Assembly: GCA_951406725.2 (NCBI GenBank)
Contig: OX597814.1
Coordinates: 13,206,001-13,270,000 of the forward strand
Origin: Octopus vulgaris
Taxonomy: Eukaryota
Length of the DNA: 64,000 nucleotides
Direction: 5' to 3'
Shown piece by piece: positions 8,299 to 62,729 of the stretch (within the stretch, counting starts at the first letter, position 1; every line of letters begins with the position of its first letter). The notes below the pieces were generated by a model. The model searched no databases and was not told the origin of the DNA. It was given only the letters and a program-made list of their open reading frames with translations. The position numbers and the translations under genes were made by a program.

Positions 8299-10150
8299 TA
8301 GATATATTTCGAACAATGATTGGTCCAGGCCATGTCTAACTTAATAGCACCACCTGATAGGATTATTTGAATCCTGTTTAAGTTAAGTTTTGTTTATGGT
8401 CCATTCAAGTAGTGAGTTTTTGTTGGGTGAGCTGTACCCAATTATGGGTGGCTTATCTGGTATTCCTTGAAGGAATCTATCCAGACTCCGTTTAAAGTTG
8501 ATGGGATCCTTTTCCTCTTTGATCTCTTTCGGGACAATGTTAAATAGGGCAGGGCCTGTTGAGGAAAAGATATTATGTTGCAGTGTACATGCATGCTGTG
8601 ATCTTGAATTGGGCAGGGGACGTATGGCCCGTGGTCCCAGTCTTGGATGAACCTTGAAGCTAATGTTCAGGTCGTTTGGGCAAAGTTGGTGGTATATTCT
8701 TCACAGCGTACAAATGATGTACCGCTCACGGCGACGCTGGAGAGAGTAGAGTTTCAAGGCTTTAAGGCGATCCCAATAATCGGGAGCAGCTATGCCTTCA
8801 ACTCGTTTAGTGAGTGCCCTCTGGGGTGATTCAATCCTCGAGATGTTTTGTCTTGTATGGGGAGACCACAGTGGGCAGCAGTATTCGAGGTGTGGCCGTA
8901 TAAATGAGGAGAAAAGTCGTGTGATGACACCTTGTTCTCTGGACCGGAAAGTTGTTGAGATCCAGGAACTCATCCTACGAGCTATATCGACCTTATTGTT
9001 AATGTGTGCACTCCAACTGAGATCGTCATCAACAATTACACCAAGGTCTCTGATATTGTTAGAGGCTGTGAGCGGTTCCCCTGAAGGAAGAGAGTATGGC
9101 TGTTTTAGTGAGGAATTTCTTCCAAAATGCATCAGCTCAAATTTTCCCTCGTTCAGTTGCATTTTGTTTCTGTCTGCCCATTGACTCACAGCATATAGAT
9201 CAGACTGGAGTTGAGTTCGGTCTGCTTCTTCATTGACGATTTGCTGGAGCTTAGTGTCATCAGCAAATATTTTCACTTTGCAGTAATGTACGACACTGGA
9301 AAGATCGTTTATGTAAATTATGAAGAGTAGCGGACCCAAAACAGTTCCCTGGGGGACACCGCTGGTAACTTTTACTGGGCTTGAGTGGATTCCATCAACT
9401 ACAACATGTTGTGTTCTATTCGCCAGGAAATACTTAATCCAGTGTAGAACATTTCCACGGATTCCAACATTTGCCAATTTTGAGAGTAGGATATTATGGT
9501 CTACCTTGTCGAACGCTTTACTGAAGTCAAGATACATGACATCAGAGTTCGAACCTGTTCCCAAGGCTTTGAGTACATCTTCAATGTGGTATAAGGGCTG
9601 TGTTAGACAGTCCCTGCCACAGCGAAAGCCATGCTGATTTGCATTTAGGAGTTTGTGGGTCTCCAGGAAGTCAGCTATCCTTGATTTTAACACTTATTCA
9701 AACACTTTAATGATGTGGGAGGTGAGTGAGATTGGGCGATAGTTGAGTGCGAGGGATCTGTTTCCCTGTTTGAAAACCGGGATGACTGACTGGGATAGAA
9801 ACTGTTTCAGTATATAACCTGCGTCTAACGAATTTCTCCAGAGGTTGGTCAGTGGGACTGCAAGTTGGTGTTTACATTCCTTCAGGAGACTAGCGGGGAA
9901 TCTATCAGGGCCTACAGCAGAGTAGTATTTGACCTCATTTATTGCTGCTATGATGTCAGTGGCAGTGAAGGTTATGTCTGAGATTTTATGTTGAGAGTCA
10001 ACTTCGTTCGCTTCTCTAATGTCAATATCAGTGGGAACACTAAAGACAGAGCAGTATTGTTTCTGCAGTATTTCTGCCATTTCTTTAGCATCGTGTTGGG
10101 AAATGCCGTTATCATCAATCAATGGCCCAATGGGTGAGACAGTGGTTCTA
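8293..10150 (-). mobile_element. CR1-like LINE, 5'-truncated, with reverse transcriptase ORF2 remnant (ORFs 9694-10122 and 8701-9693)
   Basis: [66 protein letters not shown] and YWDRLKALKLYSLQRRRER. One in-frame stop at 9694; 3' UTR to ~8293. Confidence 0.95.
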
Positions 10151-10152
10151 TG

Positions 10153-10261
<109 letters not shown>

Positions 10262-11298
10262 ATGTGTATATGTATATATATGTATATGTGCGTTTATTGA
10301 TGGGAGTCTTTTGTTACCATATAATTCCACGCACTCGCATGTGTTGAGAAACCGTTATGATTAGATATTTTCTGACACGCTTAAACCCATGTAATTTAAA
10401 TTTAAATTTCCCAACCAATGGGCACTGATTAAAACATAGGGTTTGTATGTTAATTTTCTTATTATATGTCTATAATTGTTCCCGTATGTAGATGCCTGTA
10501 TTTACTTTTTTGCATATATCTATATGTATATATGTATGTACGTATTTATATATACATATGAATATTGTATGCTTTCTCATTTCATACTTTTTATTTTTAT
10601 TGTATTATATTTTTTATATAGTTTTATTTCATTCTACCTTATTCATTTGACTAACTTTCTTATTATATCCAAGTTAAATCGTTACACTTACGCGCACACA
10701 AAAACCGAATGTAAAATAACTCCATATATTTCATCTGCCAGTGTGAGGTCAACATGTAATTTTTTTTATTGTATATCTTTTCTCTTATTATATTTTTGCT
10801 CTTAACTTATAAATGCAAATTTCAAACATAAAAGAACACTCACACTCACTCACATTCACACACTCACTCACACATACCTTCATAGATAGTACTTCGAGTA
10901 TGTCTGTAAAGTCGTGAAATAATGGGATTGAAAAGAACTGATGTAATAAATATGGTTTAAGAAGGAAAGGACTTTAACATTTGCAATTATCTTTTGCCCA
11001 GCTCTCTGTCTCTGAGCATGAGACATTTACCGGTTTTGTAATGTCCATTGTCTTGGGGCATTTTTCGTCCTGTTGTTTCTCTACTTGGAACGTAATAGAT
11101 TATATTCTTCCTTCACTTTTGCTAAAGTGAGCATCATATTGAGACTAGAATTACAAATATGAAAATATTAATTCCATTGAAATTCGCTTCAAGCGGCTGT
11201 ACGGAGACACGACACCACTTGAATAAAAGGAATAATCTTTATCGGTTACGAACTAGTTTATTGCATAATACATCTAGTACGCCTGTATTAAACTCTCC

Positions 11299-15029: not shown

Positions 15030-15167
15030 CATTATAGAGACGTAAATGTATCGACTGCCATTTCCGGTAAACATTGGGGCCTTTTTGTACCAATACCTTA
15101 TATTTATATTTATACTTCTAACTTTACGGTGATTTATTTTACTGCAAGGTAATACATTTGTATTATG

Positions 15168-15199
<32 letters not shown>

Positions 15200-15220
15200 A
15201 TGTATACATATACATATATA

Positions 15221-15294
<74 letters not shown>

Positions 15295-15296
<2 letters not shown>

Positions 15297-15693
15297 CGCA
15301 GGAGTAGCTGTGTGGCTAGTAGCTTGCCAACCAACCACATCGTTCCGGGTTCAGTCTCACTGCGTGGCATCTTGGGCAAGTGACTTCTGCTATAGCCCCG
15401 GGCCGACCAATGCCTTGTGAGTGGATTTGGTAGACGGAAACTGAAAGAAGCCTGTCGTATATATATATGTATGTGTGTGTGTGTCTGTGTTTGTCCCCCT
15501 AGCATTGCTTGACAACCGATGCTGGTGTGTTTACGTCCCCGTCACTTAGCGGTTCGGCAAAAGAGACCGATAGAATAAGTACTGGGCTTACAAAGAATAA
15601 GTCCCGGGGTCGATTTGCTCGACTAAAGGCGATGTTCCAGCATGGCCGCAGTCAAATGACTGAAACAAGTAAAAGAGTAAAAGAGTAAAAGAA
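15295..15693 (+). mobile_element. tRNA-derived SINE family A, full length
   Basis: A box tagctgtgtgg, B box gggttcagtc, internal TA/TG tract and (aaagagt)n tail. Near-identical to 18167-18567 and 52302-52710. Confidence 0.92.
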
Positions 15694-16466: not shown

Positions 16467-17680
16467 TACGAGGGTAGGTGGAAAACGTCTTAGGTTGAGT
16501 ATGAAAGGCTGATGTTAGAGCCGTGAAATTTTGCATGCATTGATTTTAACGCTTCTTATTAATAACTTCATAGTTTGGTCCAGGTAAACTGACATCTGTC
16601 TCTTCAAAGAAGTCGTCAAGTGTAACTTACTATCGACTCGTCTTGAAACTGAAATCAATGTGGCATCGTGTTGTTATCATAATACCTACATAACCCCCGA
16701 AAACATTCAGGCAGACACGGTTGCTACAGTAGAGGACTACGTTCCAGCTTTATCAATAGTGTAAACGTGGGTAGCTGAATTTAGGAGAGGAACAGACAGT
16801 CCTGAAGCTGACCAAAGGTCTGGACGTCCTACAGCTGCCACCACTGACGAAAACGTTGATCATATTCACCACATTAAGATGGAGGACAGGTGACGGGCAA
16901 TAAATCAACTCGCCATTAGCATTTTCCGTAATAGAGTGGAAAACTTTTTCTACAATGAATGCGGCACATTGAAGGCCTCTGTTCGAGTGTTACTACGTCT
17001 TCCGGCGCATGATCAAAAGCGCAACAGGCTGATCACAACAAGCGAAAATCTGACATTGTCTGATGAAGACCCAGCTTGTTACCTTGGGTGCTCCTGAAAC
17101 TAGGATGAGTCTGGGATTCATCAATTTGAAACAGTGGCGTTTCCATTGCATTCAGAGAATCCATGTCGTTGAAACGCCACTCCTCACCTCTTCTAAATGT
17201 AAGCAAGAGCCATTTCCTCTCATAAAAGTTAGTTTGGTGGAGTGCAAACAGCGCTGTGTCTATTGATTATCATCAAAAGGACCACACATTTAGAGTGTAC
17301 TGTGCCAGCTTGCTGACATAATTACGAAAGGCTATCAAGTCCAAACTGCCAGGAAAAAGCTCCAGCAACAAATCTTTGCTTTCGATGGCTGATATGCGTC
17401 ACTGTCGCTTGGCGCTGGTTGATCAACCTCCCTATTATCTGGATTTGGCCCCATCTGACTATCATCAGCTCGCCAACATTTAGTTGTAATGCTGAAGTTA
17501 TATATGATGTTGAAGATATTTATGACCCAAAAAATGAAAGCTTTGCGCCAGTGAGGTCTAAGAATTGCATCTCCGATGGAAGTAAATCGTGGAACGCATG
17601 GTGTATTATGCTGAAAGATAAATCCCATTTCGTCATGTTCTATGAGTGTATACTGGCCAACCTATGACCGTTCGATAGTA
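16467..17680 (+). mobile_element. Mariner DNA transposon, decayed, near full length
   Basis: TACGAGGGT terminus with a partial inverted match at the right end (aacg.tc.taggttg). Peptides VIKYLH, WVAEFRRG...RSGRPTAATTDENVDHIH and PPYYLDLAPSDY (cf. YSPDLAPSD). Confidence 0.88.
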
Positions 17681-18166: not shown

Positions 18167-18722
<556 letters not shown>

Positions 18723-39733: not shown

Positions 39734-39815
39734 CTCTCGACATATGTTTTGAAGACAGCATGTTTTCATTCCAAAGGAATAAAGGGTGCATTATGCAATC
39801 TTCTCACCAGGAAAG
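39734..39815 (-). ncRNA. Hammerhead motif in the inverted pLTR (mutated core)
   Basis: ctttc-CTGGTGA-gaaga...tcttc-AAAAC-ATAT-GTC-gagag. Confidence 0.65.
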
Positions 39816-39821
39816 AAGGAG

Positions 39822-40235
39822 GACAACCCCAACAGAATTAAATTTTTGTCCAGTAATTCTAAGATTAAGAAGTATGTTTACCAGTGTAGAATTTCTTCCG
39901 GTACCGATGTCTTCTTCTATATAGGAGCGTCCACTTCCCAGTTATCCAAGGGAATTTCAAACCATTATTCAGCATTCAAGGATAGTAAAAAACGACATAG
40001 TACAGGGCTAAGAGAATTAGTTTGGTGTCTTAAAGACAACAATATAAATTTCAAGTTAGATTGGTTCATACTGTCTGTATCCTTTCCTTTTGATAAGGGT
40101 AGGAGATTTTGTAACATTTGCAACTCTGAACTCTTCCATATTCTCTTCTCTGAGGTTCCCCTAGTAAACACACTCATAGAAAAATCATACAAATGTAAAC
40201 GCTGGCAGAAATATACTTTCTCCTCATATAAATGA
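39822..40235 (+). CDS. PLE GIY-YIG endonuclease domain (Neptune-like), open to its stop but lacking its 5' part
   Basis: YVYQCRI...FFYIGASTSQLSKGISNHYSAF...HSTGLRELVWCLKD...W.IL...CNICNSE...KCKR. GIY-YIG hairpin plus C-terminal CxxC. Confidence 0.85.
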   Translation, partial: DNPNRIKFLSSNSKIKKYVYQCRISSGTDVFFYIGASTSQLSKGISNHYSAFKDSKKRHSTGLRELVWCLKDNNINFKLDWFILSVSFPFDKGRRFCNICNSELFHILFSEVPLVNTLIEKSYKCKRWQKYTFSSYK

Positions 40236-41999: not shown

Positions 42000-43450
42000 G
42001 TTGACCCTATTATATATGTCTGTGGAATTGCGTTGCGTATTGAGAATGGTGTAGTTCTAAATTGCGTTAGACCTTCTGCAATGAGTTTGTAGAGGGCATA
42101 TACTCCCCAGGTGGCGGTTACATGGTTGTGTATTGTGCGCATGAATCTCAGGAGTAGGGAGAGTTTAGAGATAGAGGTAGATTGGTTCATGTTATTAACA
42201 GTAGTATTATTTGTATTATTATTATTTCTATCGTTGTTATTATTTCTTATTTCTATCGTTGTTATTACTTATCCTATTTGTGGTAGAAGTCAGGGTATCA
42301 GTATTCTGGTAAGTGTTGTTAGGATTGGTTGGGTCTTCGTTATGTTCTAAATTATTGGGTTCGATGTTGAAGCTATCTATGTGTATTTAGAGTTGTTTCG
42401 GTGTGTATTTTGATAATAGAGTGAAAGTTTGCGTCTATTAGAGGCTGTTACGATAGACTCAAAATTGGGTGGGGACGAGTTGGAGAACTTTAAAGTAAAT
42501 ATATCAAAGATAGAGTAATATTTATGTTGACCAGGGAAGTTAGAATCTAACATATTAAAAAGAATTTGGTAAAGTTCTTAACATTTAATAAGATAGGAGG
42601 CATATACCATAGAATTAAGCGGTTGCCGCTTTCTTTGATTGTTTAGGTGTACTATAATGTATATTTTTAGATAATTGAGGCGGGTTATAGGGCCCGTTAT
42701 TTTTAGCTGCTTTAGAGTTTAACCTAGTGTTATACACGTGTGTGTGGCGGGGTCTAAGCTATCTTAATCTGTGTTCTACCGGAGTTGTAGTATAGTGCAC
42801 GTATAGACTGTTACAGTTATGATGGTTATGATGTCGTGGTGATATGGCTTGAGATATATGTTGATTGAGTCTTGTACTAGAGATGTATTTTATTTGTTGG
42901 GAGAAGCCACTGACAGCGAGTGATTGGTTGTAATATGGGGCCTGGTAATTGAATTAAGTGCATGAGGGGTCAGATATACGAATCGAAATGCCACTAACTG
43001 TGTTATCGAAGGTTGATTTGTGGTGATTGGAGTTAATGTTTAAATGCTTAAAGTACTGGTTGGGTTTATGATATGGGAAGTATTGGGAGGTTTCTATGTT
43101 TAAAGTAACGTCTAAAAACGAGCGGTTTTAATAGTTTTCAAATATAATGCAAGGAAGCAATAATATGACACATTTTGGTATCCAGAAGACCCTAAAAGGC
43201 AGGTAAAGTTATGTAGGTGCAACGGAAGGACCGCTGTTAAACTCTCGGTTCAATAGTAATATGATTGAGGAGACTAAGGCGGGTCGTGTGTGAGCGTCCT
43301 TATCTTAAATAAAATAAGATAACAAGGTCAAGGAAATGTTTCGAGGATATTTATAAAGAGAAAGGTGGTCTTACAGCTGTTTCAGGGAAATAAATGACAT
43401 CCCATCATCAGAGACGAGTTAAGGGAATTTCAATAGAAGGAATATTCGAG
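42000..43450 (-). mobile_element. Penelope-like (Neptune-type) remnant: pLTR/HHR, RT thumb, linker
   Basis: Minus strand reads FLDVTLNIETSQYFPYHKPNQYFKHLNINSNHHKSTFDNTVSGISIRISD (~43120-42970), then ILWYMPP...NMLDSNFPGQHKYYSIFDIFTLKFSNSSPPNFESIVTASNRRKL (~42620-42427). Confidence 0.8.
43368..43415 (-). ncRNA. Type I minimal hammerhead ribozyme
   Basis: gtct-CTGATGA-tggga..tccct-GAAAC-AGCT-GTA-agac. Stem I gtct/agac and palindromic ACAGCTGT stem III; upstream of and in sense with the PLE RT remnant. Confidence 0.85.
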
Positions 43451-50940: not shown

Positions 50941-52301
50941 CACAGGGTTTAGTAATGCCTGAGGCATTCAGGTGGAGTGATCCGAAGTTGCTCAGCACAA
51001 GCTCTTAATTTCATGACAGTGGAACAAATGTATAAAAGTATAAAATTTGTAGTGTAAATGTCAAATATATTTATACTGTCTAGCTTCATCAAAGGTAAAT
51101 CTAAATCCTTTCTTCAAAACTGATTCATTTTTGGCTCACTGTGGCAATAAACTTAGTTCAGAATCTGAGAAACTATGAGATTAAACGTTCTTTTCGGATT
51201 TTAACTGCTGCTTAAAACATGCAAAAAGATGTCATTAATAGGTGCATACTTTTAAAAATATATTTTAAGTTACTTACTTAGTATATGAATCAAAATTTTA
51301 GAATTACGTTCTATTCTTCAGTGATATCTTTTAAACTGTTAAAATCGAATTCATCAATAACTTGAAAATTTGAATCCCTCAGATAACTGTTTCTTCACTT
51401 TAAATGCTCAATATATCTGTTTGAGGTTCAGTTGGCTTGCACAGAGCGACTTCCCGCCCCCAAAAGGAAGGACTGTGTAATACGAATTTGTTGTGACAAA
51501 ATCAACAACCTATCTCAATCCACTACTGTGCGTTAGTGAATTACATTTTCTCGGGCAATCGAAGGACGCTCTGATATTATGGAGTCAAGTAATAGGGACA
51601 AATGCCATAATTCGAAGCCCTCATAATCCGTGACGTAACTGAAAGCAAAATATTTATACTGCGCTAGGGCTCCTGTATTCTGATTTTCGACAACCGCATT
51701 TCGTGACTGTGCCTCCAACATAATAGGAATTTTCAACCCCAAAGAAAATATTACTAATATTAATAATACCCAAAGAAAAATTACTGAATTAATGTGCATC
51801 ACTGTTTAATCATTAAGCGACCTTCACTCTCCTCCAGTCCTGTACATTAATCAGCGGTTGATGACCCTGAACCATAATAAAAGAATACCTTTGCTTAGAT
51901 TTTAAACACCTTCAAATATAGATAAAAGAAATGAAGTACGCTTTGAAGTTTGCTATATTGAACTCTGTATTATACCTCGAAAATGGATCGCATCAAATAA
52001 CTGTGGTTCTCTGAGATTGCTTGGCCTTCCAGACCTAATGATAATTTCACCTGTGACTTGTGGGGCTATTTCATGCCATTTCGCGAATGATATCCTGTAA
52101 CAGGCTCAAGATTTATGTCAAGCTTCCCGATCCTATTATTTAGTATAACGTGCCAGGTTTAAGGTAATGTAAAATATATGATGTTGTGGTGACAATTGTC
52201 TATATTATAGAATGCATTATATATTTCTAAAGTTATATAAGAAATAGTAAAATGAAAAATCAATGTAAAAAAATAAAAGCAATATATTTTACACACACAT
52301 A

Positions 52302-52709
52302 GGCGCAAGAGTGGCTGTGTGGTAAGTAGCTTGCTTACCAACCACATGGTTCCGGGTTCAGTCCCCACGCGTGGCACCTTGCGCAAGTGTCTTCTACTAT
52401 AGCCTCGGGCCGACCAACGCCTTGTGAGTGGATTTGGTAGACGCAAACTGAAAGAAGCCCGTCGTATATATGTATATATATATGTGTGTGTATTTGTGTG
52501 CCTGTGTTTGTCCCCCTCAACATCGCTTGACAACCGATGCTGATGTGTTTACGTCCCTGTAACCTAGCGGTTCGGCAAAAGAAACTGATAGAATAAGGAC
52601 TAGGCTTACAAAGAATAAGTGATGGGGTCGATTTCCTCGACTAAAGGGTGTGCTCCAGCATGGCCGCAGTCAAATGACTGAAACCAGTAAAAGAATAAAA
52701 CGTAAAAGA

Positions 52710-52710: not shown

Positions 52711-52784
<74 letters not shown>

Positions 52785-52871
52785 TATTAGAGACAAAACC
52801 ACTATTTTGCAAAACAAACAAGGAAAGACTTAATCAATACATAAAATTTTAATAAATAGTCAAAAAAACCG

Positions 52872-52914
52872 CCACTACAATCGTTTCTTGTCTTGATCGA
52901 CAATCTTCAGGTGG
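52872..52914 (-). ncRNA. Type I minimal hammerhead ribozyme, intact core
   Basis: Exact reverse complement of 61744-61786. Confidence 0.9.
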
Positions 52915-53501
52915 ACTTCAATCTAAAATATCAATATTTTAAAATATACAAATAATAATTTTAAAATAATTAAAGTATGAATGAAAAAATATAAATATAT
53001 AATCCATATATAACCTATATATAATCCATATATAATCAATATATAAACAATATATAAACTAAAATAAACCTATCAACAAATAAATATAAAATATAAAATA
53101 TAAAATATATAACAAAACAAAAAATAATAATAATATAATAATAAACTATATATACACCCATACACATATACCTAATTATATATAACCATATCTAACTACA
53201 TACACTAAACCACACACCTATATATATATCCCTATACATACACATAAAAACGTCTAGGCAACTATAAATAAATAAAATAGCTAAATACTTCAACACAATA
53301 CTTATTCATACTCCCACACACACACACATACAACCCACATTCACGCTCTAGAAAACGGACATCACTCAAAATTATGAACGGAGAAATGGAATAAATGGAA
53401 TTAAAAATTATATTCACTTGGTAAAACGAACACTACTTAAAAATTATGAATGAAACAATGCAATAAAACAACAGACATCGCAAATATACACAAATTACTA
53501 C

Positions 53502-56500
53502 GAATTCCTTAACAAACCTACCATGATAAACCAAAACTCACAAAAACATATAATGATAAAATCTCCCTTTACTAAACTCTATAACATACCTATATAGCAA
53601 TCCCCCTAACCTAAACATTCACACACAAATACACACACGTAAACCACACACCCACGACATATACAAATACCCACACCACTTACACATACCAATACATACA
53701 TATAAACCTCAACATATACTCCAAAAACCCACTCAACCCCACACAGACAAATAAACACAAAAATTATGAATGGATTCTTTTATAAAACTACCATGATAAG
53801 CTAAAACTCACAAAACAGAAATGATAAAACCTCCCTTTACTAAACACTATAACATACTTATATAGCAATCCCTTTAACCTATACATTCACACACAAAAAC
53901 ACACATGTAAACCACACACCCATAACAAATACAAACACCCACCCCACTCACACACACCCACAAGTACATATAAGCCTCAACATATACACGAACAAAATTA
54001 CTTTACCAAGGAACTTAACATATGTATAAAAAGTATAACCGCTCCGGAAACGAACATCTCTAAATTAATGAATGGAGAAATGGAATAAATGGAATTAAAA
54101 ATAATATTCACGTGGCAAAACGAACACCACTCAAAAATTATGAATGAAACAATGCAATAAAACAACCAACATCGAAAATAGACAAATTACCACGAATTCC
54201 CTAAAAAAACCATGATAAACCAAAACTCTTAAAAACATATAACGATAAAATCTCCCTTTGCTAAACTCTATAACAAACCTATATAGCAATCCCCCTAACC
54301 TAAACATTCACACACAAATACACACACGTAAACCACAGACCCACGACTTATACACATACCTATACTAACTTATAAACCTCAATATACACCAAAATCCACT
54401 CCCTCCACACACAGACAAATTAACACATACATCCCAAAACCTAAATAACAAACCCATATACACATTCACACACAAACACACACACAGGCAAAACACACAC
54501 ACACAACAGATACATATACTCCCTCACATATACGCATATACATACTCACTAAACTCGATATATACAACAATATTTACACACCCACACTCATACAGATAAA
54601 TAAATTATACAACTAAAAACTCACACACAATCTCATATACATAAACACTCCTATGAAAACAACATTAAATACATCGTAATTAACCAGAATATCAAAAATA
54701 ACAATATGACATAAGGATAAATAAAATACATACTTACAAGTCAGTTTCAAATTATAAAGTGAAATTAAATTCTTAGCCGTTAAAAAAATCAAACCAAAAT
54801 TACGTTACCATAGAAATAACTTATGTAAAAAAAGAATACGCGTCATGGAAAGTAAACGTCATTTAAAATTATGAATGGAGAAAAAGAATAAATGGAACTA
54901 AAAATTATATACACGTGGCAAACCAACACTACTTAAAAAAATTTATTATGAATGGATTCTTTAAAAAACTACCATGAAAAATCATTATATACATTTATGA
55001 GCTTTAGCTCACCTTAGCAGCTCTAACAAACAACTTGCAGCAACCCAAACCTATTCTCGATGCCTACCTCACTACTACACTATTCCACTCACAATTCCAA
55101 GCAACGCTAGTCCACCACCCGGTTACAATTCCCAACTCCACCCATTCATTCACAATTTCAACGACGTTCGCCTCCACAGCGCTACATATAAGCCTCAACA
55201 TATACACCGGAGATTCACATCCGTGCGAATGGGTGAGAGTAATTCCTTAACAAACCTACCAAGATAAACCAAAACTCACAAAACATATAATGATAAAATC
55301 TCCCTTTACTAAACTCTATAACATACCTATATAGCAATCCCCCTAACCTAAACATTCACACACAAATACACACACGTAAACCACACACCCACGACATATA
55401 CAGATACCCACACCACTTACACATACCAATACATACATATAAACCTCAACATATACTCCAAAACCCACTCAACCCCACACATACAAATAAACACAAAAAT
55501 TATGAATGGATTCTTTTATAAAACTACCATGATAAGCTAAAACTCACAAAACAGAAATAATAAAACCTCCCTTTACTAAACACTATAACATACTTATATA
55601 GCAATCCCTTTAACCTATACATTCACACACAAAAACACACACGTAAACCACACACCCATAACAAATACAAACACCCACCCCACTCACACACACCCACAAG
55701 TACAAATAAGCCTCAACATATACACCAAACAAAATTACTTTACCAAGGAACTTAACATATGTATAAAAAATATAACCGCTCTGGAAACGAACATCTCTAA
55801 ATTAATGAATGGAGAAATGGAATAAATGGAATTAAAAATAATATTCACGTGGCAAAACGAACACCACTCAAAAATTATGAATGAAACAATGTAATAAAAC
55901 AACCAACATCGAAAATAGACAAATTACCACGAATTCCCTAAAAAAACCATGATAAACCAAATCTCTTAAAACCTATAACGATAAAATCTCCCTTTGCTAA
56001 ACTCTATAACAAACCTATATAGCAATCCCCCTAACCTAAACATTCACACACAAATACACACACTTAAACCACAGACCCACGACTTATACACATACCTATA
56101 CTAACTTATAAACCTCAATATACACCAAAACCCACTCCCTCACCACACAGACAAATTAACACATACATCCCAAAACCTAAATAACAAACCCATATACACA
56201 TTCACACACAAACACACACACACGCAAAACACACACACACAACAGATACATATACTCCCTCACATATACGCATATACATACTCACTAAACTCGATATATA
56301 CAACAATATTTACACACCCACACTCATACAGATAAATAAATTATACAACTAAAAACTCACACACAATCTCATATACATAAACACTCCTATGAAAACAACA
56401 TTAAATACATCGTAATTAACCAGAATATCAAAAATAACAATATGACATAAGGATAAATAAAAAACATACTTACAAGTCAGTTTCAAATTATGAAGTGAAA

Positions 56501-56981
56501 TTAAATTCTTAGCCGTTAAAAAAATCAAACCAAAATTACGTTACCATAGAAATAACTTATGTAAAAAAAGAATACGCGCCATGGAAAGTAAACGTCATTT
56601 AAAATTATGAATGGAGAAAAAGAATAAATGGAACTAAAAACTATATCCACGTGGCAAACCAACACTACTTAAAAAAATTTATTATGAATGGATTCTTTAA
56701 AAAAACTACCATGAAAAATCATTATATACATTTATGAGCTTTAGCTCACCTTAGCAGCTCTAACAAACAACTTGCAGCAACCCAACCCATTCTCAATGCC
56801 TACCTCACTACTACACTATTCCACTCACAATTCCAAGCAACGCTAGTCCACCACCCGGTTACAATTCCCAAATCCACCCATTCATTCACAATTTCAACGA
56901 CGTTCGCCTCCACAGCGCTACATATAAGCCTCAACATATACACCGGAGATTCACTTACACATCCGTGCGGATGGGTGAGAG
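53502..56981 (+). repeat. Two tandem copies of a ~1.74-kb unit, itself built from ~190-240-bp subrepeats; mirrored in the right arm
   Basis: aattccttaacaaacctacc at ~53503 and 55241. The subrepeat ctccctttactaaactctataac...tagcaatccc occurs three times per unit. Confidence 0.93.
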
Positions 56982-59900
56982 TATACATTGAGTGTAGTGA
57001 TAGGGCTCCCATTACTATACACATTTATACCTGTGTGGTAGTCTCCATGTGTATATTCACGCACGGGTATAAATGCAGGGGGTACACGCGCACGTCATTA
57101 GCGTGTACCCCCTCACATGTACATATGCATGCTATTTGGGCTCGATATATGCAACAATGTAATCGCGCCCGCATACATGCATATGGGCGAGTTGCACAAT
57201 CAAAAAACGCACACATGTGTGTGTGCGTTCCCCGGTTGTGCAATTCACCCATCTTTGGTGTTAGTGGGTGTAAACGTATCGCTGTAGATGTCAAGCTTGA
57301 TACGTATGTATATGAGTGTGTATTGGGGGGTTGTACGTATTTATTGTATGCATGTGCTTCACGCACGTGCGTCCATGTATGGATGAATATATTGGGATTG
57401 CTATGTGGGTGTAAATTGGGTATGGAGTGGGGAGTTTTGTCATTGTATGGGTGTAGGTTTCATATGTGATGGTGGTTAGTTGGTAATTTTTGGTATGTTC
57501 TGTATATTTGGGTTAGTTATGTATTATTCTAGTGTGTATAATTGTATACATATGATTTGTGTGAGTGGGATTACGCCCATTTTTGGGGATGTATGTGTTT
57601 ATTTATCCATATGGGGTGGGAGTGGCCGTTAGGTGTATATGTTGAGGCTCACATGCAATTCCAGGTACAGCGAATGAAGTGGGCACTTATATTTGTTATG
57701 GGTGTGTGTACTTTATTATAACAGACAATACCCAAATAAAATCTGTCAATTCAACATACCAAATAAAAAACAAAAAACAAAGGGATCATAAACATTCACA
57801 CATACATACAAAACTCAATAAAAACACCACTAAATAACACCCATCAACATATAAATATATCCTCCAAAATACATATAGCAAATGCATTATAAAAATACAT
57901 AATAAAATAAAATAAAAATAAAAATGTATATAATGATTTTTCATGGTAGTTTTTTTAAAGAATCCATTCATAATAAATTTTTTTAAGTAGTGTTGGTTTG
58001 CCACGTGGATATAGTTTTTAGTTCAATTTATTCTTTTTCTCCATTCATAATTTTAAATGACGTTTACTTTCCATGGCGCGTATTCTTTTTTTACATAAGT
58101 TATTTCTATGGTAACGTAATTTTGGTTTGATTCTTTTAACGGCTAAGAATTTAATTTCACTTCATAATTTGAAACTGACTTGTAAGTATGTTTTTTATTT
58201 ATCCTTATGTCATATTGTTATTTTTGATATTCTGGTTAATTACGATGTATTTAATGTTGTTTTCATAGGAGTGTTTATGTATATGAGATTGTGTGTGAGT
58301 TTTTAGTTGTATAATTTATTTATCTGTATGAGTGTGGGTGTGTAAATATTGTTGTATATATCGAGTTTAGTGAGTATGTATATGCGTATATGTGAGGGAG
58401 TATATGTATCTGTTGTGTGTGTGTGTTTTGCGTGTGTGTGTGTTTGTGTGTGAATGTGTATATGGGTTTGTTATTTAGGTTTTGGGATGTATGTGTTAAT
58501 TTGTCTGTGTGGTGAGGGAGTGGGTTTTGGTGTATATTGAGGTTTATAAGTTAGTATAGGTATGTGTATAAGTCGTGGGTCTGTGGTTTAAGTGTGTGTA
58601 TTTGTGTGTGAATGTTTAGGTTAGGGGGATTGCTATATAGGTTTGTTATAGAGTTTAGCAAAGGGAGATTTTATCGTTATAGTTTTTAAGAGATTTGGTT
58701 TATCATGGTTTTTTTAGGGAATTCGTGGTAATTTGTCTATTTTCGATGTTGGTTGTTTTATTACATTGTTTCATTCATAATTTTTGAGTGGTGTTCGTTT
58801 TGCCACGTGAATATTATTTTTAATTCCATTTATTCCATTTCTCCATTCATTAATTTAGAGATGTTCGTTTCCAGAGCGGTTATATTTTTTATACATATGT
58901 TAAGTTCCTTGGTAAAGTAATTTTGTTTGGTGTATATGTTGAGGCTTATTTGTACTTGTGGGTGTGTGTGAGTGGGGTGGGTGTTTGTATTTGTTATGGG
59001 TGTGTGGTTTACGTGTGTGTTTTTGTGTGTGAATGTATAGGTTAAAGGGATTGCTATATAAGTATGTTATAGTGTTTAGTAAAGGGAGGTTTTATTATTT
59101 CTGTTTTGTGAGTTTTAGCTTATCATGGTAGTTTTATAAAAGAATCCATTCATAATTTTTGTGTTTATTTGTATGTGTGGGGTTGAGTGGGTTTTGGAGT
59201 ATATGTTGAGGTTTATATGTATGTATTGGTATGTGTAAGTGGTGTGGGTATCTGTATATGTCGTGGGTGTGTGGTTTACGTGTGTGTATTTGTGTGTGAA
59301 TGTTTAGGTTAGGGGGATTGCTATATAGGTATGTTATAGAGTTTAGTAAAGGGAGATTTTATCATTATATGTTTTGTGAGTTTTGGTTTATCTTGGTAGG
59401 TTTGTTAAGGAATTAATCTCACCCATTCGCACGGATGTGAATCTCCGGTGTATATGTTGAGGCTTATATGTAGCGCTGTGGAGGCGAACGTCGTTGAAAT
59501 TGTGAATGAATGGGTGGAGTTGGGAATTGTAACCGGGTGGTGGACTAGCGTTGCTTGGAATTGTGAGTGGAATAGTGTAGTAGTGAGGTAGGCATCGAGA
59601 ATAGGTTTGGGTTGCTGCAAGTTGTTTGTTAGAGCTGCTAAGGTGAGCTAAAGCTCATAAATGTATATAATGATTTTTCATGGTAGTTTTTTAAAGAATC
59701 CATTCATAATAAATTTTTTTTTTAAGTAGTGTTGGTTTGCCACGTGTATATAATTTTTAGTTCCATTTATTCTTTTTCTCCATTCATAATTTTAAATGAC
59801 GTTTACTTTCCATGACGCGTATTCTTTTTTTACATAGGTTATTTCTATGGTAACGTAATTTTGGTTTGATTTTTTTAACGGCTAAGAATTTAATTTCACT

Positions 59901-61743
59901 TTATAATTTGAAACTGACTTGTAAGTATGTATTTTATTTATCCTTATGTCATATTGTTATTTTTGATATTCTGGTTAATTACGATGTATTTAATGTTGTT
60001 TTCATAGGAGTGTTTATGTATATGAGATTGTATGTGAGTTTTTAGTTGTATAATTTATTTATCTGTATGAGTGTGGGTGTGTAAATATTGTTGTATATAT
60101 CGAGTTTAGTGAGTATGTATATGCGTATATGTGAGGGAGTATATGTATCTGTTGTGTGTGTGTGTTTTGCCTGTGTGTGTGTTTGTGTGTGAATGTGTAT
60201 ATGGGTTTGTTATTTAGGTTTTGGGATGTATGTGTTAATTTGTCTGTGTGTGGAGGGAGTGGATTTTGGTGTATATTGAGGTTTATAAGTTAGTATAGGT
60301 ATGTGTATATGTCGTGGGTCTGTGGTTGACGTGTGTGTATTTGTGTGTGAATGTTTAGGTTAGGGGGATTGCTATATAGGTTTGTTATAGAGTTTAGCAA
60401 AGGGAGATTTTATCGTTATATGTTTTTAAGAGTTTTGGTTTATCATGGTTTTTTTAGGGAATTCGTGGTAATTTGTCTATTTTCGATGTTGGTTGTTTTA
60501 TTGCATTGTTTCATTCATAATTTTTGAGTGGTGTTCGTTTTGCCACGTGAATATTATTTTTAATTCCATTTATTCCATTTCTCCATTCATTAATTTAGAG
60601 ATGTTCGTTTCCGGAGCGGTTATACTTTTTATACATATGTTAAGTTCCTTGGTAAAGTAATTTTGTTCGTGTATATGTTGAGGCTTATATGTACTTTTGG
60701 GTGTGTGTGAGTGGGGTGGGTGTTTGTATTTGTTATGGGTGTGTGGTTTACATGTGTGTTTTTGTGTGTGAATGTATAGGTTAAAGGGATTGCTATATAA
60801 GTATGTTATAGTGTTTAGTAAAGGGAGGTTTTATCATTTCTGTTTTGTGAGTTTTAGCTTATTATGGTAGTTTTATAAAAGAATCCATTCATAATTTTTG
60901 TGTTTATTTGTCTGTGTGGGGTTGAGTGGGTTTTTGGAGTATATGTTGAGGTTTATATGTATGTATTGGTATGTGTAAGTGGTGTGGGTATTTGTATATG
61001 TCGTGGGTGTGTGGTTTACGTGTGTGTATTTGTGTGTGAATGTTTAGGTTAGGGGGATTGCTATATAGGTATGTTATAGAGTTTAGTAAAGGGAGATTTT
61101 ATCATTATATGTTTTGTGAGTTTTGGTTTATCATGGTAGGTTTGTTAAGGAATTCGTAGTAATTTGTGTATATTTGCGATGTCTGTTGTTTTATTGCATT
61201 GTTTCATTCATAATTTTTAAGTAGTGTTCGTTTTACCAAGTGAATATAATTTTTAATTCCATTTATTCCATTTCTCCGTTCATAATTTTGAGTGATGTCC
61301 GTTTTCTAGAGCGTGAATGTGGGTTGTATGTGTGTGTGTGTGGGAGTATGAATAAGTATTGTGTTGAAGTATTTAGCTATTTTATTTATTTATAGTTGCC
61401 TAGACGTTTTTATGTGTATGTATAGGGATATATATATAGGTGTGTGGTTTAGTGTATGTAGTTAGATATGGTTATATATAATTAGGTATATGTGTATGGG
61501 TGTATATATAGTTTATTATTATATTATTATTATTTTTTTGTTTTGTTATATATTTTATATTTTATATTTTATATTTATTTGTTGATAGGTTTATTTTAGT
61601 TTATATATTGTTTATATATTGATTATATATGGATTATATATAGGTTATATATGGATTATATATTTATATTTTTTCATTCATACTTTAATTATTTTAAAAT
61701 TATTATTTGTATATTTTAAAATATTGATATTTTAGATTGAAGT

Positions 61744-61786
61744 CCACCTGAAGATTGTCGATCAAGACAAGAAACGATTGTAGTGG
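61744..61786 (+). ncRNA. Type I minimal hammerhead ribozyme, intact core
   Basis: ccac-CTGAAGA-ttgtc(gatcaa)gacaa-GAAAC-GATT-GTA-gtgg. Stems I and II are perfect; predicted cleavage after GUA at 61782. Confidence 0.9.
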
Positions 61787-61962
61787 CGGTTTTTTTGACT
61801 ATTTATTAAAATTTTATGTATTGATTAAGTCTTTCCTTGTTTGTTTTGCAAAATAGTGGTTTTGTCTCTAATAATATTTTATAATATTTTACTATAAAAT
61901 TGGATTTAATCCTAAATCCGATTTTTTTCCCTGTAAATTTGGATTTATTCCCTAATATTTAT

Positions 61963-62023
<61 letters not shown>

Positions 62024-62729
62024 TGTATATATGTATGTTTGTATGCATGTAGATAGGTATATAATATAAAATAGATTTTGGATCACCGTGTTGAATACAG
62101 AAAAACGAGACCCTAAACATGGATAGAAAGACTGTTATGTATCCCCCCACACACAAACATAACAAAAACGTGCAGATTATAACAAATACGTTAAGAAATC
62201 AATAGAGTTTCTTGAAGATGGAAGAGCGCATCAGAGAGAAAAATATGAAAAGTACGAAGAGATAGGTAAGAAAATTGAAAAGAAATGTCAGAAGGATCAT
62301 AAATCAGGCCAACATAATAGCAACAATAATTATCGTATCGATGGTAAGGTATATTACAAAAGAAGATACAAGCTTACCTCATCATTTCAACGTGACATGG
62401 AACAGATTCAGAACGAGATCTCATGTATTAAGAGGGATATTATTAACGAAATCAAAGTTGAGAATATCTCGTATAAATGACCTCGTATATTGTACTGCTT
62501 ATCCTCAGTTGGCATGTATCGTGTTAAGACAGAGAAAAAAGGGTCAAACATATACGGCAAAATCAAAAATTTGGGAATGAAGTTAAGCTTTTCAATAAAA
62601 GACTTCAAAGGGGAATAGAAGATTTTAAAGAAAAGCTTTCGTGATGTGATTTAAATGGTTACAGCTTACAAGTGAAGTAAAGCGTTATATGCACAAGTGA
62701 AGCAAAGCGTTCAAAGAGATTTATAAGAA

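Follow-up and report, generated by a model that had tools for sequence, protein, structure and literature searches.

The reverse transcriptases (RTs) of Penelope-like elements (PLEs) are the sister group of telomerase, and the PLE cycle is poorly known. The subject of this analysis is a palindrome at positions 52775-61965 of a 64,000-nt stretch of Octopus vulgaris DNA (contig OX597814.1, positions 13,206,001 to 13,270,000 of the forward strand; the whole stretch is referred to here as the window). An original prediction, made from the sequence alone, had taken it for a young, giant, non-autonomous foldback element mobilised by a PLE. The palindrome is one insertion of two truncated PLE copies lying head to head and not a member of a foldback family. 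PLE insertions that lie head to head and carry a tail at one end are already known (PMC8557442, PMC3846280), and the window locus by itself is an ordinary product of the PLE insertion process. The kind of insertion is known; the new contribution is evidence at the level of the family, through which open questions about PLE mechanism become directly testable.

Intron retention, tandem and inverted structures, and hammerhead function are listed as open for PLEs by Craig et al. (2021, PMC8557442), and about 900 recent insertion ends of the octopus family bear on all three. For Poseidon_Ac of Anolis, in vitro work describes both target strands as cut and extended from two internal RT starts, with a tail between them at a stem-loop (PMC11167929); uncleaved RNA is given as the main template and cleavage as unneeded (Frangieh et al. 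2024, PMC11167929). Retention of the Penelope intron in Drosophila virilis has been attributed to selection or to an antisense template (PMC2377424, PMC4209133).

The palindrome and its source element

Most of the structure originally described is borne out. Aligned over 3963 columns, the two arms (52775-56733 and 57922-61883) show 99.6% complementarity; 15 columns differ, through 3 indels and 10 substitutions. Their GC skew is pronounced and of opposite sign, -0.3 to -0.8 in the left arm and +0.3 to +0.8 in the right. Both ends lie in (TA)n, and an extension of about 80 nt stands at the right end only. With (TA)n on either side, no target-site duplication is distinguishable. The statement that no credible open reading frame (ORF) is present holds for the arms, where no open frame reaches 90 aa, but the centre has two stop-to-stop frames of 243 and 144 aa, located inside the 3' untranslated region (UTR) of the element. 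Two features had been overlooked: the 1188-nt centre (56734-57921) belongs to the left copy, extending its arm in the order of the element, and a 1.74-kb duplication lies inside each arm. The parts are as follows, with L033 denoting an autonomous copy elsewhere in the genome.

52711..52778 and 61955-62036, no strand: left and right parts of the (TA)n target, flanking both palindrome ends
52771..57924, minus strand: left copy, a 5'-truncated PLE 3' region of 5.15 kb, mapping to L033 3056-8225 at 98.8%
57922..61965, plus strand: right copy, a 5'-truncated PLE 3' region of 4.04 kb, mapping to L033 4245-8203 at 98.6%, plus tail
57922..57924, no strand: head-to-head junction with a 3-nt overlap, whose exact match is found once in the genome
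53503..56983, minus strand: a tandem pair of 1.74-kb units (97.8% alike), with a mirror image in the right arm
61884..61887, plus strand: start site A, where tail-less arms end, from mapping on L033 and family arms
61888..61965, plus strand: tail of about 80 nt ending at start site B, at the right end only
61896..61925, plus strand: hairpin within the tail, between sites A and B (fold z = -3.1 for 61880-61965)

Arms and centre are collinear with the 3' UTR and pseudo-long-terminal repeat (pLTR) of the autonomous element at 98.6-98.8%, which upholds the proposed PLE origin. The left copy starts 233 nt past the ORF stop codon of that element and ends, tail-less, at site A; the right copy ends, tailed, at site B. 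A single insertion of truncated copies is indicated because both map onto L033 and the junction is unique in the genome. In full copies the ORF begins with an ATG about 55 nt beyond the tail end (site B), and the tail hairpin is a candidate RT-positioning element. Each 1.74-kb unit holds one start and one donor, and other family copies contain a single such unit.

Genome searches covered 2.8 Gb in 227 contigs. The last 276 nt of the palindrome returned 1303 first-look candidates genome-wide, and the 40 that were scored are 99-100% identical. Other copies sharing the terminus exist, and the youth attributed to the element is upheld. Three of the first 30 loci run on past the tail into a single ORF, and full-length open frames occur at at least six loci (L031, L033, L039, L179, L180 and L186). 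The frame at L033:309-2822 encodes an 838-aa protein, P0001, with an RT domain (YRDD) followed by a GIY-YIG-type endonuclease (EN) domain (VYIG), and thus supplies the coding partner with a shared pLTR that had been foreseen. A homodimer prediction for residues 1-490 gave no verdict either way (score 0.00), a profile search with P0001 found no solved relative, and no CCHH motif was seen by eye in the protein. Residues about 500-600 form an Asn-rich low-complexity insert between RT and endonuclease, and an Asn-rich insert is likewise reported for rotifer Penelope ORFs (PMC3846280).

The autonomous copy displays the membership features of EN+ Penelope-like elements: a single ORF with RT and GIY-YIG domains, a hammerhead motif in the pLTR (spacer 16), and pLTRs from partial tandems with an inverted 5'-truncated copy and a one-ended tail. 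It also has those of the Hydra clade, namely a C-terminal EN, DKT (SDKT in P0001), the CxCX5C linker (CTCRDKSNC), CxxC and CxH around E and N (CYLC...E...N...CRH), and insertion into (TA)n. Forty homologs of P0001 were found, the named ones from Argonauta and Octopus; P0001 has KWK where the Hydra clade has RWK, and the homologs have RW at these columns. The source family is probably a new, unusually long Hydra-type PLE, an assignment made by motifs rather than by an RT tree. Assignment to Naiad/Chlamys was rejected on two grounds, the C-terminal position of the endonuclease and the presence of a hammerhead.

The window holds other sequences of related type. At 39783-40235 (plus strand) lies a remnant of another Hydra-type endonuclease domain, with 30% identity to P0001 over 138 aa (E 1e-17), and 3 kb from it, at about 43365-43415 (minus strand), another well-formed type I minimal hammerhead with a CUGAUGA core and palindromic stem III. 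Weaker hammerhead candidates lie near 17060 (plus) and 29044 (minus).

Ends, splice states and cut sites across the family

One regularity of the family concerns its ends. The examination covered 86 loci, and 58 of them bear a single outward arm on each strand; the 28 left out comprise single arms, loci whose partner stops short of the hammerhead, a locus with an older diverged copy (L057), a locus with three hits (L085) and one without an inverted arm (L031+32). In 57 of the 58 a tail-less end (A) is combined with a tailed end (B), with P about 2e-16 under independent end choice at 0.5. Six of the 58 were first found by a tail-bearing query, which fixes one end and leaves the other free. Twenty-four of the 27 unspliced pairs are simple A+B; the longer arm is A in 11, including the window locus, and B in 13. 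Since the pairs with a longer A arm cannot get their tail from foldback of the first cDNA, both arms appear to have been primed separately. Each of the other head-to-head loci has its own junction, inner lengths of the 27 unspliced pairs range from 0.5 to 14.6 kb, and several of these pairs include parts of the ORF.

Some loci are more complex. L060+L061 and L037+L038 are 14.6- and 8.8-kb insertions with inverted ORF segments, showing further template switches. At L176 (G000:C9:50396400-50399600) both arms of a head-to-head A+B pair are tandem arrays, of 3 and 9 units, built from the same 250-nt piece that spans sites A, B and the ORF start and lacks the hammerhead; these arrays suggest a circular template or repeated template jumps.

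A second regularity is the splice state of the arms, which depends on the following predicted features.

59898..59920, plus strand: putative exon 1, 23 nt, running from TCACT, an initiator-like start, up to the splice donor; second copy at 58159-58181
54760 and 56496, minus strand: mirror starts of the putative exon 1 in the left copy
59921..61735, plus strand: putative GT-AG intron, 1815 nt, or 3554 nt if from the donor at 58182

The predicted intron is 49% T and 5% C, and it is retained in the window insertion. In numerous short copies, here called minis, the word preceding GT at 58182 and 59921 is directly followed by the base that comes next to AG at 61735. Exact patterns matched 455 spliced copies, 38 spliced at a second GT 4 nt further on, and 425 unspliced copies in which the acceptor context is kept; reversed controls gave 0 matches. 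All four exon-2 haplotypes are found in spliced and unspliced forms. On the upstream side of the donor, 64 spliced arms extend for 23 nt and just 5 for 27 nt, a wall that sits on the A of TCACT, a word noted as initiator-like in a rotifer pLTR (PMC3846280). About half of the family ends thus likely carry a spliced junction and halt at a probable transcription start, which lies 23 nt before the donor. Copies that continue into the coding region are different: there are 29 exact tail-to-ORF junctions, and every one of the 11 whose copy extends to the acceptor is unspliced, the remainder (6 loci and a 12-unit array) ending short of it.

Crossing the spliced and unspliced lists (exact matches on C1, C2 and C3 to 108 Mb; 81 spliced and 100 unspliced arms) shows that splice state is a property of the pair. 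The crossed lists yield 44 head-to-head pairs, 24 unspliced and 20 spliced with none mixed, and no tail-to-tail pair among the 181 arms. The +4 donor, used by 8% of spliced arms, is present on both arms in 12 of 13 informative pairs, compared with about 4% by chance; three further +4 pairs are uninformative. Paired arms differ by a mean of 2.0 substitutions per 1000 nt, as against a median of 23.5 between loci (14 pairs), and the mate is the nearest or a tied sequence for 27 of 28 arms.

A third line of evidence comes from the hammerhead motif, for which two positions apply.

61744..61786, plus strand: type I minimal hammerhead, predicted to cut after 61782, identified by inspection, with 452 exact copies in the genome
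52872..52914, minus strand: its mirror copy, identified by inspection

Intact hammerheads had been claimed at both ends, and the motif is complete at each: CUGAAGA, a 16-nt spacer with a 5-bp stem II, GAAA, a self-complementary stem III, GUA and a 4-bp stem I. This fits the PLE descriptor CUGANGA-(7-17 nt)-GAAA (PMC8557442), and the diverged copy L057 has a compensatory change in stem II. Two checks did not bear the claim out. The Rfam scan gave no hammerhead match at the gathering score and none at E<=10, and the ribozyme fold is not the lowest-energy fold of the monomer (-5.9 against -7.5 kcal/mol). The self-complementary stem III would form a duplex of -5.8 kcal/mol; such stems are described for dimer-dependent hammerhead motifs, and comparable minimal motifs as not cleaving as monomers (PMC4209133).

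The genomic ends speak to use of the motif in vivo. The normal A precedes the predicted cut in 893 arms, which run through the site, and most templates were therefore uncleaved. By comparison, all 7 arms with another base at this position, from 6 loci, are truncated precisely at the cut; both arms of L194 stop there, and L177 also begins there. The single control position examined gave 2 matches, neither a truncation, and from a rough background count over about 105 positions in the retrieved arms (24 truncations among 220 anchors at 10 loci), about 0.3 would be expected at any one position. The hammerhead thus likely cleaved templates occasionally in vivo, at a level of about 1%, an indirect sign of in vivo cleavage by a minimal hammerhead; cleavage appears dispensable for insertion. 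Self-cleavage of a read-through palindrome transcript is doubtful, because the antisense arm, transcribed first, would pair with the hammerhead, and because such minimal motifs failed to cleave as monomers (PMC4209133). A transcript of this kind would form a duplex of about 4 kb. The element's own starts face outward, and transcripts from them would exclude the opposite arm.

One tandem arrangement of the motif was seen. L128 (G000:C5:64451610-64451854) contains three head-to-tail units of 107-109 nt of a +4-spliced hammerhead mini and looks like a nascent retrozyme-type array.

A proposed route to insertion and its alternatives

What the genome shows directly is the pair of copies, their source element, the combination of an A end with a B end, and a build that recurs throughout the family. 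With a probability of about 0.8, the palindrome consists of two 5'-truncated, intron-retaining Hydra-type PLE copies that were joined after both ends of a (TA)n cut were primed on one uncleaved sense RNA. In this scheme, the GIY-YIG domain would cut both strands of (TA)n, and two RT active sites would start at A and B flanking the hairpin, the start at B displacing the first cDNA. The two same-sense cDNAs would then anneal through a short overlap and be filled in. Copy size would be set by the template. Spliced mRNA primed near its 5' end would run off at the cap and give dead-end minis of about 200-260 nt ending at the transcription start, while unspliced read-through RNA primed at the downstream pLTR would give kilobase arms like those in the window, or full copies. 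The retention of PLE introns would have a mechanical explanation, because only unspliced read-through RNA would yield long copies. The fuller proposal, in which one RNA is copied twice from A and B, spliced RNA is a dead end, unspliced RNA alone transmits elements and about 1% of templates are hammerhead-cut in vivo, is favoured by a narrower balance.

Several results weigh against this scheme. Pfam returned nothing significant for P0001 (across 21 aligned members, RVT_1 and GIY-YIG were each recovered in 1). Whereas 88 of the 181 arms on the crossed lists are paired, 93 have no partner in these exact-match lists, and because about half of the arms thus lack a detected partner, single priming or very short second arms would have to be common. 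L041 is the B+B exception to the end rule, L133 is a discordant +4 pair, and the arms of L142 and L143 differ by one G near the acceptor. Three of the five long spliced arms run 48, 140 and 300 nt upstream; with a few spliced arms running well beyond the start, read-through RNA would sometimes be spliced. Poseidon_Ac is described as initiating at sites without target homology, whereas the octopus ends are TA-rich and merge into (TA)n (PMC11167929). Similarity of the arms could also reflect two RNAs of one source locus in one cell, or gene conversion between arms.

The first of these possibilities is the strongest competitor, although an unlikely one: both target ends would be primed, but on two separate RNAs that come from one source locus, such as a hammerhead-paired dimer with one subunit per site. 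It accounts for the A+B ends and for the likeness of the arms, RNA dimers are made plausible by the self-complementary stem III, and the exceptions L133, L142, L143 and L041 fit it. It would nevertheless require the two RNAs to share their splice state in 44 of 44 pairs and the +4 donor in 12 of 13, and both L194 arms to stop at the hammerhead cut.

Considerably less probable is self-priming or foldback on an antisense template, proposed for rotifer PLEs to account for both their head-to-head repeats and their retained introns (PMC3846280), and here taken as the source of the inverted arm. Foldback would yield near-identical arms, and mini junctions are often centred on short self-complementary words. 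An antisense template cannot, however, yield 493 copies spliced at sense GT-AG or ends at a sense cut site, and foldback offers no source for the tail in the 11 of 24 pairs whose tail-less arm is the longer one. Antisense self-priming is already largely refuted for this PLE family, which favours a sense template over the published proposal.

The non-autonomous 9.1-kb foldback element of the original prediction, mobile as a unit, retains next to no probability: the insert lacks an ORF and the family has many other long palindromes, but the exact-match search found the junction once, and the 27 unspliced pairs differ in junction and inner length. An assembly artefact of foldback-chimera reads, which the near-perfect palindrome might suggest, is just as improbable, given that the ends differ in a family-specific way (A versus B), the single-copy centre maps collinearly onto the element, 10 substitutions separate the arms, and the build recurs at 57 other loci, down to about 450 bp. 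Equally remote, and bearing on the splicing claim only, is a separate SINE-like family of short copies derived from one DNA deletion; the minis are numerous, but their breakpoints fall exactly at GT and AG, a second donor at +4 is in use, and all four haplotypes are common to spliced and unspliced copies.

Elsewhere in the window, a common dispersed repeat that looks like a SINE occurs at 52301-52700, 15152-15679 and 18167-18710, and one copy directly adjoins the (TA)n target on the left. RT fragments of a non-LTR retrotransposon, of 330 and 199 aa, lie at 8701-10293 (minus strand).

Comparison with known systems

If the proposed route is correct, this young octopus family has preserved a genomic record of the PLE life cycle. 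In the literature consulted, in part as excerpts, neither PLE mini-copies with a spliced junction nor one-A-one-B pairing nor hammerhead-cut ends were found described, though the papers of Arkhipova and Evgen'ev from 2003, 2005 and 2006 may describe intron-less copies.

The octopus family shares with the Hydra clade, as described by Craig et al. (2021, PMC8557442), the single ORF with RT then GIY-YIG, the DKT, CxCX5C, CxxC and CxH motifs, the pLTR hammerhead, the (TA)n target, partial tandems, the inverted 5'-truncated copy and the one-ended tail. It differs in length, 6.3-8 kb between hammerheads as against a typical, non-defining length that is generally <3 kb, in a kilobase T/G-rich intron bearing internal repeats, in a tail of about 80 nt rather than 30-40, in KWK rather than RWK, and in the Asn-rich ORF insert (PMC8557442).

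With Poseidon_Ac it has in common two sites that flank a hairpin, with the tail between them; the Poseidon_Ac sites lie inside the ORF, 30-40 nt apart, and those of octopus upstream of the ATG, about 80 nt apart (PMC11167929). The octopus data extend the in vitro two-start-site result to a genome-wide one-A-one-B rule. The available text of the Poseidon_Ac study reports neither such pairing nor spliced copies nor hammerhead-cut ends, the last being unseen in its RNA-seq (PMC11167929).

Penelope of D. virilis has a similar short exon 1, an intron in the 5' UTR that borders hammerhead helix I at its 3' end, and retention of this intron in genomic copies (PMC2377424, PMC4209133). Its intron is 75 bp, compared with 1.8-3.6 kb in octopus, and intron-less genomic minis, present in the octopus family, are not described for it in the portions of these sources available (PMC2377424, PMC4209133).

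Non-LTR retrozymes are likewise short non-coding type I hammerhead sequences from PLE pLTRs, but they are head-to-tail tandems thought to be spread by circles, whereas octopus copies are head-to-head pairs or singles (bioRxiv 10.64898/2026.07.22.740005). Against such tandems, the three 107-nt units of L128 are the only octopus hammerhead tandem seen. The window palindrome was rejected as a non-LTR retrozyme, its two hammerheads being inverted and 8.9 kb apart.

The proposed octopus route also resembles L1 twin priming, in which two primings on one RNA produce a 5' inversion. The second L1 primer anneals anywhere upstream and leaves parts without overlap, whereas the octopus starts are fixed and neighbouring and would give overlapping, palindromic arms.

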